From NCBI GenBank assembly GCA_964347045.1, contig CAYFXC010000032.1, forward strand, positions 1-14,695: a DNA stretch of 14,695 nucleotides, in the 5' to 3' direction. Under the pieces are notes generated by a model. It searched no databases and was not told the origin of the DNA. It saw nothing but the letters and a program-made list of their open reading frames with translations. Below are positions 2,364 to 13,803 of the stretch, piece by piece; the first letter of the stretch is position 1, and each line of letters begins with the position of its first letter. The DNA is from an uncultured archaeon. Lineage in GTDB: Archaea > Asgardarchaeota > Hermodarchaeia > Hermodarchaeales > Hermodarchaeaceae. A program made the translations under genes and the position numbers.

Positions 2364-3734
2364 ATGAAACTGACAATAAAAAATCTTAGAAGCGTCCTAG
2401 CACTAATACTGCTTTTTTCAGCGGTTTCTCCGGTTTTTTATTACCTGCTAAATTCTGATGGTTCTCCATGGGACCCTAACCCTTCAGAAACACAGCACGC
2501 CACATTACCGCATCATAAAATACTAGTGAATAATGAGCATTATCCAGAGTGGAATGTAACATTAGGAGGAACTGGTACTCAAACCGGTGCTTCGATTATT
2601 GAATGCCGAAATGGTGGTTATGCCTTAGTTGGCCAGGGCGCTGGCTGGGGAGACAGAGACGCGTTTCTAATCCGTCTTGATCAGGATGGAACGTTTCTCT
2701 GGAACCAGACCTATGGCGGGGAGGACAGGGATGGAGCGGGAGGCATTGTCGAATGTAGCGATGGTGGCTTTGCTATCACCGGGGGATCATCGAATTTCAC
2801 CACCGGAAACCACGCATGGTTACTTCGCACCGATGCGAACGGTAACCAACTTTGGAACTATACTTATCCAAGTCTTAATTTTGATGGATTTGGGGCAATT
2901 ATCGAGCTCTCAGGTGGCGGATTCGCCGTCTCAGGGTATACCGGGACTTTTGGGGCAGGAGGAATCGATGCTTGGTTGGTCTTTTTTGATGCTCTTGGAC
3001 AGCCGATTCAGAATTTCACATATGGTGGTATTGACGACGATTACGCAATTCGGATGATCCAGTGTCAAAGTGGTGGGTTTGCCATTGTTGGGACGACTGG
3101 CAGTTATGGGGAAGGAATAAGGAGCTTGTGGTTGCTACGTGTAAACGACAACGGCGATTTAGCTTGGAATAGAACCTATGGTGGCGCTGGTTGGGATACA
3201 TTGTACGGTGTTACCGAATGCCTTGATGGAAATCTAGCTCTCGCTGGATCTGGAAATAGCACGGGTGCCGGTAGTTGGGACATGATTCTCATTCTGACCG
3301 ATATGAATGGGAATGAGCTCTGGAACCAAACCTTTGGGGGCACCGCGAGTGATGGCGCCTTTGGGCTTGTTCAACTAGCCGATTTAGGCTTTGCCCTAGC
3401 TGGTTGGACTTACTCCTTTGGGGCAGGCTCCGAGGATATCTGGGTTGTCCGCACCGACCAAAATGGAAATCAACTTTGGAATCAGACCCTTGGTGGAGCA
3501 AGTTTTGATGAATGCTTTGATGTCGAAAAAACCTCAGATGGCGGATTCATCCTGGTTGGTGATACCTACAACTTTGGAGACCCCATCGATGTGTGGGTCC
3601 TTTATTTCAAAGACGACTCTCCACCTTTCACGCCCTCACTTCCAATAGAACTCATTGGACTCGTAGTGATCATCATTCTCGTAATCGTTATAGCAGGTCT
3701 ACTATTAATTCGGCGCCGGCAAACAGCGACTTGA
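2364..3734 (+). CDS. Secreted, C-terminally membrane-anchored repeat protein (probable beta-propeller)
   Basis: N-terminal hydrophobic signal or TM segment. About 7 repeats of roughly 50 aa of the form DGGFALAG.T..FGAG..D.WL.R.D.NGN.LWNQTYGG. C-terminal TM IGLVVIIILVIVIAGLLLI followed by RRR. Confidence 0.85.
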   Translation: MKLTIKNLRSVLALILLFSAVSPVFYYLLNSDGSPWDPNPSETQHATLPHHKILVNNEHYPEWNVTLGGTGTQTGASIIECRNGGYALVGQGAGWGDRDAFLIRLDQDGTFLWNQTYGGEDRDGAGGIVECSDGGFAITGGSSNFTTGNHAWLLRTDANGNQLWNYTYPSLNFDGFGAIIELSGGGFAVSGYTGTFGAGGIDAWLVFFDALGQPIQNFTYGGIDDDYAIRMIQCQSGGFAIVGTTGSYGEGIRSLWLLRVNDNGDLAWNRTYGGAGWDTLYGVTECLDGNLALAGSGNSTGAGSWDMILILTDMNGNELWNQTFGGTASDGAFGLVQLADLGFALAGWTYSFGAGSEDIWVVRTDQNGNQLWNQTLGGASFDECFDVEKTSDGGFILVGDTYNFGDPIDVWVLYFKDDSPPFTPSLPIELIGLVVIIILVIVIAGLLLIRRRQTAT

Positions 3735-3811
3735 TCACCATCGCTAACTCCAGGCAAAGCAGGAAATTGCGTAAGGAATTTTACAAATTCCAAAACGGTC
3801 AATCTAACAGT

Positions 3812-3925
3812 ATGACGTGAAGCAGATCATCTTTCACATCGTTTGTAAGAAACCGCTTGTGCGTCTTCGAAAGTAGGGAAAACCGCAAATAACTCGTCCA
3901 GAAATAGTCTACGGCAATTAAAAAA
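3812..3925 (+). repeat. Inter-module repeat copy R3 (most complete)
   Basis: ATGACGTGAAGC-AGATCAT-CTTTCACATCGT (3812-3842), TTGTAAGAAA, then GTCTTCGAAAGTAGGGAAAACCGCAAATAACTCGTCCAGAAATAGTCTAC (3863-3912), which matches R5 at 43/50 by hand alignment. Confidence 0.9.
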
Positions 3926-4184
3926 AATGCCCGAAGATTTGAGTATGCCTTGAGTATCTCCCTGCAAGGGTAGCGGTACCAGTCTCCACCAACCTAAAAT
4001 CGGTACGCCCCATACATATTTCCTTGAAGCCCTCAGCCTCAATGTTCAGTCTCGAATTCTGATCCCGGGCCATCACTAAACCACAGACCGAACAGGAATA
4101 CACTCGCTCATCCACGCGAACCTCGCGGATGGCTCCATACCCTGAACAGATTTTAGTAGAGGGGAACCAGCGATCCACATGCAC
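3918..4184 (-). pseudogene. tnpB: TnpB C-terminal fragment (zinc ribbon / RuvC III region)
   Basis: VDRWFPSTKICSGYG..ERVYSCSVCGLVMARDQNSRLNI matches the TnpB pattern V.R.FPSSK.CS.CG..R...C..CG...DRD.NAA.NI. One Cys is changed to Tyr, and the N-terminal ~300 aa are missing. Confidence 0.85.
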
Positions 4185-4317: not shown

Positions 4318-4360
4318 TTGTAAAAATTTCAAATATGTCTTCGAGTTTCATTCAAATAGT
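4318..4360 (+). repeat. Partial (right-half) repeat copy R3b abutting the IS remnant
   Basis: TTGTAAAAATTTCAAATAT-GTCTTCGAG (4318-4345) matches the TTGTAAGAA..GTCTTCGAA part of the repeat at the usual spacing. The palindromic core is absent. Confidence 0.55.
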
Positions 4361-5410: not shown

Positions 5411-5433
5411 GTGACAAAAAATCATTAGAAATA

Positions 5434-5542
5434 GCGATGTGAAACAAATCTATCCTTCACGTCATTAGTACGAATTAGCACGTTTGTCTTCAACATCTTG
5501 TAAACTGTCTAATAACACAAGGAAAATCTGGCTGCAGCAATA
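5434..5542 (+). repeat. Inter-module repeat copy R4 (between convergent genes)
   Basis: GCGATGTGAAAC-AAATCTAT-CCTTCACGTCAT (5434-5465), TAGTACGAA, GTCTTC (5486-5491), AATAACAC, AAAAT. Confidence 0.85.
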
Positions 5543-5543
5543 T

Positions 5544-5577
5544 TCACCGCTAACCCTTCTGAGAGAGGTTCGGGTGA
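5544..5577. terminator. Imperfect hairpin just past the regulator stop codon; possible terminator
   Basis: TCACCG-ct-AACC-cttctgagaga-GGTT-CGGGTGA inverted repeat. Confidence 0.35.
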
Positions 5578-9310: not shown

Positions 9311-9483
9311 AGAATCAGGATCAGGAACTGAACAACATTGTCAATGTGCCCTTCCACAGCTGAACAAGGATGATATTTTTGTCGCGTGACTACCTCCCCA
9401 ATTTCGAATGACAATTGGTCAACAAGCCAATTGGTATCAATCTTGTTTTGAAAATTCAAATGAATAATGTGCGATTCAATTCT

Positions 9484-9595
9484 ATTTGGTAAACCTAATC
9501 ATCTTTCATGTCATTTTGAAGAATAGCACATATGTCTTCGAAAGTAGGAAAAAACGCCAATAACACATCAAAAAATAGTCTACTACCATTCAAAA
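9484..9595 (+). repeat. Inter-module repeat copy R5 (between convergent genes)
   Basis: ATTTGGTAAACC-TAATCAT-CTTTCATGTCAT (9484-9514, left arm degenerate), TTTGAAGAA, then GTCTTCGAAAGTAGGAAAAAACGCCAATAACACATCAAAAAATAGTCTAC (9534-9583). Confidence 0.9.
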
Positions 9596-9676
9596 GAATA
9601 CACACAAACCGAATTTACAGATAGAAGAAGAAAGGACTGGTATCCGGATTCCTGACGCCTGTCGAAAGACGGTGGT

Positions 9677-12472: not shown

Positions 12473-12537
12473 CACCGGTCCGATTGTCTAGACTTGAGGT
12501 CCCTATATATGCTTCATGCTGGGTGATGATTTGCCCA

Positions 12538-12643
12538 ATGATGTGACACAAATCCTCTCCAAAACTATCAAGAATTGTATATTTGTCTTCGAAATTTGGA
12601 AGAAAGGCGAATAACACCCTGGAAAGGCTTCTTCGCAATAAAA
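12538..12643 (+). repeat. Inter-module repeat copy R6 (right arm of core degenerate)
   Basis: ATGATGTGACAC-AAATCCT-CT.., CAAGAA, GTCTTCGAAA (12585-12594), GGAAGAAAGGCGAATAACAC, GCAATAAAA. Confidence 0.8.
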
Positions 12644-12649
12644 GAGGAG

Positions 12650-13731: not shown

Positions 13732-13803
13732 ATAACGTGGCAATCAAGCCACCCTCTCGTGACCAACGAGAATCATCTCCGCATCTACGTCTTCGAAAGA
13801 CGT
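13732..13803 (+). repeat. Highly degenerate repeat copy R7
   Basis: ATAACGTGG (13732), AATCATCT (13771-13778) and GTCTTCGAAAG (13789-13799). The spacing differs from the consensus. GTCTTCGAAAG is part of the hairpin ACGTCTT-CGA-AAGACGT. Confidence 0.4.

Follow-up and report, generated by a model that had tools for sequence, protein, structure and literature searches.

The 31-base near-palindrome at 3812-3842 is real and is better conserved than any other part of the ~120-base repeat to which it belongs, which is a genus-specific, conserved cassette-junction element of Hermodarchaeum with the dyad as its core. Cassettes have been replaced or moved by exchange at both edges of a module within this repeat, one edge lying at the ACGT core of the left dyad arm and the other in or just after an invariant 9-mer. 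Our best explanation, to which we assign a probability of roughly 0.45, is a co-oriented junction element of ~120 bp at whose two module edges cassettes are exchanged and whose dyad likely is a duplex site for a dimeric protein. At such a junction about five outer bases of the left arm would travel with the left cassette, a ~55-bp module made up of the remaining dyad, a linker of 20 bp and the invariant 9-mer would stay with the array and follow neither cassette, and a leader of ~60 bp would travel with the right cassette.

The window, i.e. the whole stretch of DNA analysed, is the entire 14.7-kb contig C32 of a metagenome-assembled genome (MAG) of 2.58 Mb and 89% completeness (G000, the source assembly; other G numbers denote genomes of relatives and L numbers their loci). 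The four cores quoted in the initial annotation were recovered at 772-802, 2090-2120, 3812-3842 and 5434-5465 with their letters exactly as written, and further cores begin at 9484 and 12538. Each core forms the left end of a repeat of ~105-120 bp, and all copies in the window, including partial ones, lie on one strand (plus). R1 (772-860) carries its dyad at 772-802 and a diverged right part, and R2 (2087-2198) carries its dyad at 2090-2120. The R3 dyad core (3812-3842) has 11-nt arms at 3812-3822 and 3832-3842 and a 9-nt asymmetric centre at 3823-3831. The central ~55-bp module of this copy, which is its best-conserved part, occupies 3817-3871 (consensus columns 33-87, column n corresponding in R3 to window position 3784+n) and ends in the invariant 9-mer at 3863-3871; the moderately conserved R3 leader with its 5-nt blocks extends over 3872-3934 (columns 88-150). 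R4 (5430-5545, dyad at 5434-5465) has a 1-nt insertion in the centre, R5 (9481-9600) a degenerate left arm and a leader 82% identical to that of R3, and R6 (12533-12646) a decayed right arm and a 4-nt deletion. A partial copy at 4320-4349, consisting of the 3' part of the module with the 9-mer, opens a luciferase-like cassette, and homology to the orthologous luciferase-like cassettes begins within it at 4324-4330. A decayed partial copy at 13732-13803 is devoid of a leader.

A profile built from the six window copies detected about 20 copies in G000, located on contigs C32, C40, C31, C55, C38, C21, C44 and C11 in a single orientation per contig and with a spacing of 0.5-5 kb; these eight array contigs are mostly short. 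Among 80 copies listed from loci of relatives, all but one were co-oriented on their own contig, again spaced by 0.5-5 kb. With a translated profile the repeat family was found in 11 of the 14 other genomes of the genus, G002, G010 and G012 giving no match, and in 0 of 46 genomes sampled more widely from the family and phylum, and an exact 21-mer at the heart of the core was confined to Hermodarchaeota MAGs in a search of 185,579 species. Every one of these genomes is a fragmented MAG, and arrays often end where their contig does. Ten G000 contigs checked for tRNA genes, all eight array contigs among them, contained none, and tRNA-linked integration was rejected on these grounds. A conserved chromosomal anchor was likewise rejected, as the array edges of four genomes lacked common synteny. 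No Rfam family matched the element, the one sub-threshold match lying elsewhere in the window. A C/D-box RNA was dropped because no D box was seen on inspection by eye, and Aloposons (PMC8813620), which are giant-gene transposons, were set aside as unrelated.

The genes between the copies are mutually unrelated and form cassettes of one to three genes in either orientation. Cargo of the window comprises an esterase, a surface protein, a luciferase-like oxidoreductase, a P-type ATPase, a CAAX protease, and an ArsR regulator together with an opine dehydrogenase and a protein with a B12-binding domain, while that of relatives includes LRR proteins, Ras-family GTPases, transporters and methyltransferases; genes recurring in the arrays are ordinary cargo. 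Gene orientation is unbiased, with 28 minus and 23 plus among right neighbours and 28 plus and 25 minus among left neighbours. The window gene at 2364-3734 (plus strand) encodes a protein of 456 aa with internal repeats of ~50 codons and no Pfam match; its DNA contains direct repeats at 2817, 3285 and 3441 and, judged from the DNA, apparently specifies a hydrophobic C-terminal stretch. Paralogues of this protein recur in arrays of relatives and at array edges.

Over 1-4 kb, cassettes of the window and their counterparts in G006, G008 and G011 had 80-91% identity, which extended into the non-coding flanks (~87-88%), whereas the XerA locus of the same genomes was only 63-74% identical over ~9 kb, except for a 386-bp stretch at 80%. 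This difference indicates horizontal movement of the cassettes. Furthermore, among 61 copies 17 pairs had a common left flank, 15 a common right flank and none both, and among 72 copies 15 pairs were left-sharing, 21 right-sharing and one shared both sides. Since flank-sharing pairs almost never share both sides, cassette order has been almost completely reshuffled between species. The element occupies cassette boundaries in co-oriented arrays and is a site of cassette reshuffling. About 22 junctions carried the leader only (from about column 59-75 on) and about 12 the module only, which implies that the dyad is not required at every boundary.

Symmetry and conservation of the dyad were assessed on alignments of 61-72 full copies from 12 Hermodarchaeum genomes, with pairing statistics calculated on a 50-copy alignment. 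In 61 full-length copies from the 12 genomes, all 11 positions of the consensus arms were complementary and the arms enclosed a 9-nt centre, giving two inverted arms within the range of about 11-13 bp. In terms of an overlap of 6-8 bp, the centre measures 9 nt between the perfect arms and 7 nt if the unpaired 12th position is counted. Arm cells were paired in 82.7% of cases compared to 30-43% when one arm was slid by 1-3 columns, and when the arm consensus was searched for in the window with three mismatches allowed, it matched at 772 and 3812, compared to 0 matches in 100 shuffles. The inverted-arm dyad that had been read from four copies is therefore genuine across species, and the excess of dyad symmetry is present in the larger alignment. 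R3 (3812-3842) is one of the weaker dyads with 8 of 11 Watson-Crick pairs, and its core, taken as single-stranded DNA, showed no folding advantage over shuffles (z -0.45). The asymmetric centre was conserved at 84-100%, in agreement with its earlier description as one of the best-kept parts, the downstream 9-mer at 93-100% and a 5-mer at 87-92%. Variation in the arms consisted mostly of transitions, also as previously described.

Three ACGT cores were recognized in the module at columns 31-34, 52-55 and 77-80 (R3 positions 3815-3818, 3836-3839 and 3861-3864). Two of these are mirror images in the arms, and the third is located 46 bp from the first with the same polarity. The hypervariable arm positions correspond to the C or G of the ACGT cores, always on the outer side, and vary by transitions (35:5, 7:33, 26:2). 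This outer-side polarity of the variable base makes the first and third ACGT cores direct repeats 46 bp apart. The frequency of ACGT is unremarkable with an observed/expected ratio of 0.90, and avoidance of this motif was rejected for that reason.

To locate switches of ancestry within the repeat, cassette orthologues across species were used to determine which repeat part was co-inherited with which neighbour. At informative columns, left-sharing pairs matched at 0.80 in the flank, at 0.83 in columns 28-32 against a background of 0.56, at 0.60 in column 38 (9 of 15 matches; background 0.51) and near background beyond. Right-sharing pairs remained at background over columns 28-87 and reached 0.68 in columns 88-100 (background 0.39). 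Left linkage was thus lost within the left arm, somewhere from column 32 to column 38 (R3 ~3816/3817 to 3822), and right linkage set in around columns 86-88, either in the invariant 9-mer or directly behind it (R3 3863-3871). The left boundary lies at the first ACGT core and the right one just past the third, in or after the 9-mer. Concordantly, inspection of single pairs placed the right boundary in or just after the 9-mer in 7 of 8 independent cases. Because few columns are informative, the exchange points are resolved only to within 5-9 bases. In R2, the start of the left arm was common to orthologues of the left cassette and the leader to the orthologue of the right cassette; in R3, the leader was co-inherited with the right-hand cassette and the module with neither neighbour.

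These boundaries bear directly on the model proposed in the initial annotation, i.e. a core of the loxP/dif type at which a tyrosine recombinase would exchange strands inside the asymmetric centre, with the downstream blocks acting as accessory arm sites. An ancestry switch inside the spacer had been named there as the decisive test. The ~55 bases between the boundaries, including most of the dyad, track neither cassette, which is incompatible with one crossover in the spacer. The left arm has lost its linkage to the left cassette by its innermost base, column 38 (9 of 15 against a background of 0.51), and the right arm and the next 20 bases are unlinked to the right cassette. Since right linkage starts at the 9-mer, this block is a second exchange boundary and not an accessory arm site, which leaves the conservation claimed for the downstream blocks intact but removes the role assigned to the 9-mer. 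Inverted 11-nt arms, a conserved asymmetric centre and uniformly direct sites are what the model predicts, and XerA-type recombinases occur in 12 of 15 genomes and a second tyrosine recombinase in about half. However, the arm distance of 9, counted between the perfect 11-nt arms, lies outside the usual 6-8 and is 2 nt shorter in G014, no recombinase gene adjoins any array examined, and the second recombinases have no repeat nearby. Dyad, conserved asymmetric centre and cassette-boundary position were thus retained from the loxP-like reading, whereas the spacer crossover and a linked recombinase gene, none being present near the arrays examined, were not, and we consider the model as a whole quite improbable.

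The modules themselves provide a further view of these junctions. Modules beside recently shared cassettes differed as much as any two modules, which suggests that cassettes arrive with their leader and that the module is that of the recipient array or is reshuffled there. In G014, all five copies (locus L066, contig C402; 1898, 5966, 7355, 8270 and 11634) share a dyad centre that is 2-3 nt shorter, with a stem shortened by one pair and a 9-nt loop kept. The short centre was also detected in one G006 copy (L052 near 9260). The short-centre copies of G014 adjoin cassettes that have the standard centre in other species, implying that the module tracks the genome and not the cassette. Adjacent modules were no more alike than distant ones (0.49 vs 0.47), and duplication of the module at each insertion, in the manner of target sites or CRISPR repeats, was rejected on this basis. 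Within-genome similarity at variable columns was slightly raised (0.50 vs 0.47; permutation p 0.0005).

Gene conversion among conserved modules could erase linkage without a dedicated enzyme, which counts against our best explanation. In an alternative that we regard as unlikely, the repeat is a passive intergenic regulatory or insulator unit, an operator-like dyad with a T-run terminator on the minus strand, that is kept for transcription, and homologous recombination and gene conversion between its copies would produce the shuffling and the unlinked module incidentally. The conserved block ends at the two linkage boundaries, as if conversion tracts stopped at non-homologous flanks, and the slight homogenisation within genomes, the genome-wide occurrence of the G014 variant, T-runs following small hairpins on the minus strand of the leader, and the failure to find a dedicated enzyme all point in the same direction. 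However, near-strict co-orientation is unexpected for a regulatory site serving genes of both orientations, and homology-led crossovers should fall in the perfectly conserved 21-bp core and leave columns 53-78 right-linked, which was not seen. Greater similarity of adjacent than of distant copies was not observed either.

The initial annotation had also considered recognition of the dyad as a hairpin of single-stranded DNA or RNA. Such a folded strand would serve an integron-type integrase or an HUH enzyme, in the manner of attC or of IS200/IS605 ends. Well-kept copies do form an 11-bp stem (-5.7 kcal/mol, z -3.5), mismatches are mostly transitions, and the G014 variant with its 9-nt loop and a stem reduced by one pair would be tolerated better by a hairpin than by a duplex dimer site. 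The covariation check, however, turned out negative: at the two variable arm pairs the four base combinations occurred at the frequencies expected from independence, 446 of 500 shuffles equalled or exceeded the data in pairing, and covariation scored below the shuffled mean. Moreover, RNAalifold gave no consensus structure for the element, single-strand folds showed local stems only and no attC-like hairpin of the whole element, Rfam contained no matching family, a Y1 transposase was absent from five genomes, and an integron integrase was not found. This makes a folded strand very improbable. Independent variation of the arms provides no evidence for a hairpin.

Returning to our best explanation, the dyad is probably a protein-binding site in duplex DNA, judged from its sequence features. 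The tolerated arm positions, second and fifth when counted inwards from either outer end, mirror each other, as would suit a dimer that reads duplex DNA. Because of the perfect dyad consensus, the independent arm variation and these mirror-symmetric tolerated positions, we infer a double-stranded site for a dimeric recombinase or nuclease that would direct or stimulate the exchanges. Candidate drivers are the XerA-type recombinase, a sporadic zinc-ribbon tyrosine recombinase, and break-induced homologous recombination.

Against this explanation stands the finding that no gene for a recombinase, a transposase or a nuclease of the LAGLIDADG family was recovered from any array contig examined. 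Of the 15 genomes searched, 12 yielded XerA-type genes and about half a second tyrosine recombinase, which is sporadic across the genus. In G000 these are one XerA-type recombinase on C12, with its ORF at ~27.17-28.12 kb and its catalytic domain at 27555-28043, and a tyrosine recombinase of 350 aa with a C-terminal zinc ribbon at C9:121087-122139 (L017:1210-2262), 127 bp from the contig end; second recombinases of relatives that resemble the latter are often also near contig ends. The integron-integrase scores of both G000 recombinases were 49.8 and 154.9 bits, with a cut-off of 265. No repeat copies were found around the second tyrosine recombinases of five genomes, no tyrosine recombinase gene near any array examined, and a serine recombinase was not found, which led us to reject an integrase at the array edges. 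A Y1 transposase (PF01797) had no match in five genomes, and none of the array contigs examined carried a gene for an integrase, a serine recombinase, a Y1 transposase or a LAGLIDADG protein. LAGLIDADG matches in G000 were confined to C1 and C14; array heads lie mostly at contig ends. Scanning G000 for dif-like patterns yielded 0 matches with two strict patterns and three scattered matches with a looser one, and a canonical dif-like pattern was rejected accordingly.

A TnpB fragment beside R3 raised the possibility of an IS200/IS605 right end or an omega-RNA. This relic, 88 aa of the C-terminus on the minus strand at 3918-4184 (Cas12f1-like TNB domain, E 2.8e-8; truncated at both ends), is a gene-less cassette between R3 and the partial copy at 4320 and does not belong to the repeat. 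G000 contains no intact TnpB, and about 25 TnpB matches were obtained in G006. The many TnpB genes of relatives are off the array contigs, except for one sub-threshold match and one located ~64 kb from the copies; in L074 an intact TnpB and the repeat are 1.4 kb apart and separated by other genes. The element resembles IS200/IS605 ends and TnpB omega-RNA regions in its subterminal imperfect palindrome, its strand-specific orientation and the neighbouring TnpB fragment. In contrast to these, no Y1 transposase is present in five genomes, and TnpB in the window and in L074 is just another cassette. This candidate was therefore rejected, given the absence of Y1 transposase and the position of TnpB genes off the array contigs.

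The minus strand of the repeat shows a pattern reminiscent of coding sequence. Over 3811-3909 and its equivalents, it contains a conserved frame of ~20 codons with third-base variation, and columns 54-88 vary mainly at every third base. An open frame of 21 codons is kept in 21 of 61 copies, whereas a stop occurs at one particular codon in 19 of 61 and indels affect 28 of 61. The encoded peptide was carried by only three short predicted proteins of 29-69 aa (P0001-P0003) among 1.84 billion representatives, and by no open frame of more than about 100 aa in 61 genomes. A host gene ending or starting in repeat sequence was not found either in the 61 genomes or among the 1.84 billion protein representatives. 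The third-base pattern is at most an unexplained echo of a coding origin.

Such an echo would arise if the module derived from ~20 codons at the start or end of a host gene, a former copy left behind each time a homing-endonuclease element supplied a replacement end. The third-base variation in columns 54-88 and the frame left open in 21 of 61 copies speak for this scenario. Yet no frame longer than about 100 aa contains the peptide, the only proteins with it are those of 29-69 aa, and the stop in 19 of 61 copies and the indels in 28 of 61 count against it as well. Moreover, the conserved frame enters the non-conserved flank without a shared stop, array contigs have no LAGLIDADG gene, the 16S trailer of G006 is unrelated, and array edges are not syntenic between species. 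A cast-off gene end thus appears a rather poor candidate for the origin of the module. Unlike the end-swapping homing-endonuclease arrays of yeasts (WHO elements), no host gene with the sequence and no LAGLIDADG endonuclease gene in the arrays were found here, and the repeat is linked to neither neighbouring cassette. An SSU rRNA gene was not found in the G000 assembly, and SSU rRNA was assembled in only 3 of 15 genomes of the genus. The SSU match in G006 spans 3.6 kb compared to a model of 1,478 positions, which suggests insertions or introns.

Comparison with known systems revealed partial likeness in each case. The cores of loxP, FRT, dif and lambda att consist of inverted 11-13-bp arms around an asymmetric centre and act as directly repeated sites. 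Inverted arms, an asymmetric centre and direct repeats are features common to these and the Hermodarchaeum element, whereas the latter shows no ancestry switch in the centre, has a 9-nt centre and is not accompanied by a linked cognate recombinase. Sites of pdif modules have an 11-6-11 layout and alternate in orientation around each module; in contrast, all sites here are direct, with a 9-nt centre and unrelated arm sequences, and they are located on chromosomal-looking contigs of an archaeon. Identity with an Acinetobacter-type dif module site was rejected because of the direct sites and the 9-nt centre. The pdif/dif modules of Acinetobacter plasmids (PMC6449649, PMC13141974) resemble the cassettes in that short dyad sites of recombinase type enclose a single gene or a few genes, which may point either way. 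They are reported to be shuffled between replicons by a housekeeping Xer encoded elsewhere; in the present arrays Xer is only a candidate for this role.

Likeness to integrons, which have been described in archaea (Ghaly et al. 2022, PMC9668308), extends to the organisation of whole arrays. As in integron arrays with their attC sites, co-oriented repeats of ~60-140 bp mark each boundary between cassettes, the cargo consists of diverse genes unrelated to one another, the order of cassettes varies between relatives, and many arrays are without a nearby integrase (CALIN-like). Unlike attC, the element contains a local 31-bp dyad only and no imperfect hairpin spanning the whole site. Integron integrases and a bias in gene orientation are missing here, cassettes reach up to 4 kb and up to three genes, and there are two exchange boundaries ~55 bp apart and not one point near the end of the site. 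Identity with attC was rejected on account of the missing whole-site hairpin, integrase scores far below 265 bits and mixed gene orientation.

A bolder reading, which we hold to be possible but doubtful, regards the element as the docking site of an undescribed Asgard gene-capture system, in which the module of ~50 bp would be resident and leader-bearing cassettes would be swapped between two directly repeated, ACGT-centred edge sites through a two-site exchange by a protein unrecognisable from its sequence. If this were true, the two-site exchange would differ from integrons, dif modules and transposons, and it would have moved genes for a Ras-family GTPase and an LRR protein between Hermodarchaeum species. 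The arrays of G006/G008 contain a small GTPase of the Ras family (E 7e-48) along with an LRR protein as cargo (L052:1093-1650 and L054:444-1292, both plus strand), i.e. eukaryote-like signalling genes carried as exchangeable cassettes.

Eukaryotes have their closest known relatives in the Asgard archaea, in which the gain and shuffling of accessory genes are poorly understood. The junction element described here belongs to a cassette platform that is confined to one genus among those searched and is neither an integron nor a known transposon. As the cassettes are more alike between species than the one core-genome locus compared, this platform represents a route of recent gene flow, and eukaryote-like signalling genes are among its cargo. 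From the ancestry of the junctions in three parts follow precise, testable predictions on the sites at which the DNA is cut and joined, and the 31-bp dyad can be used directly as bait for the protein responsible.
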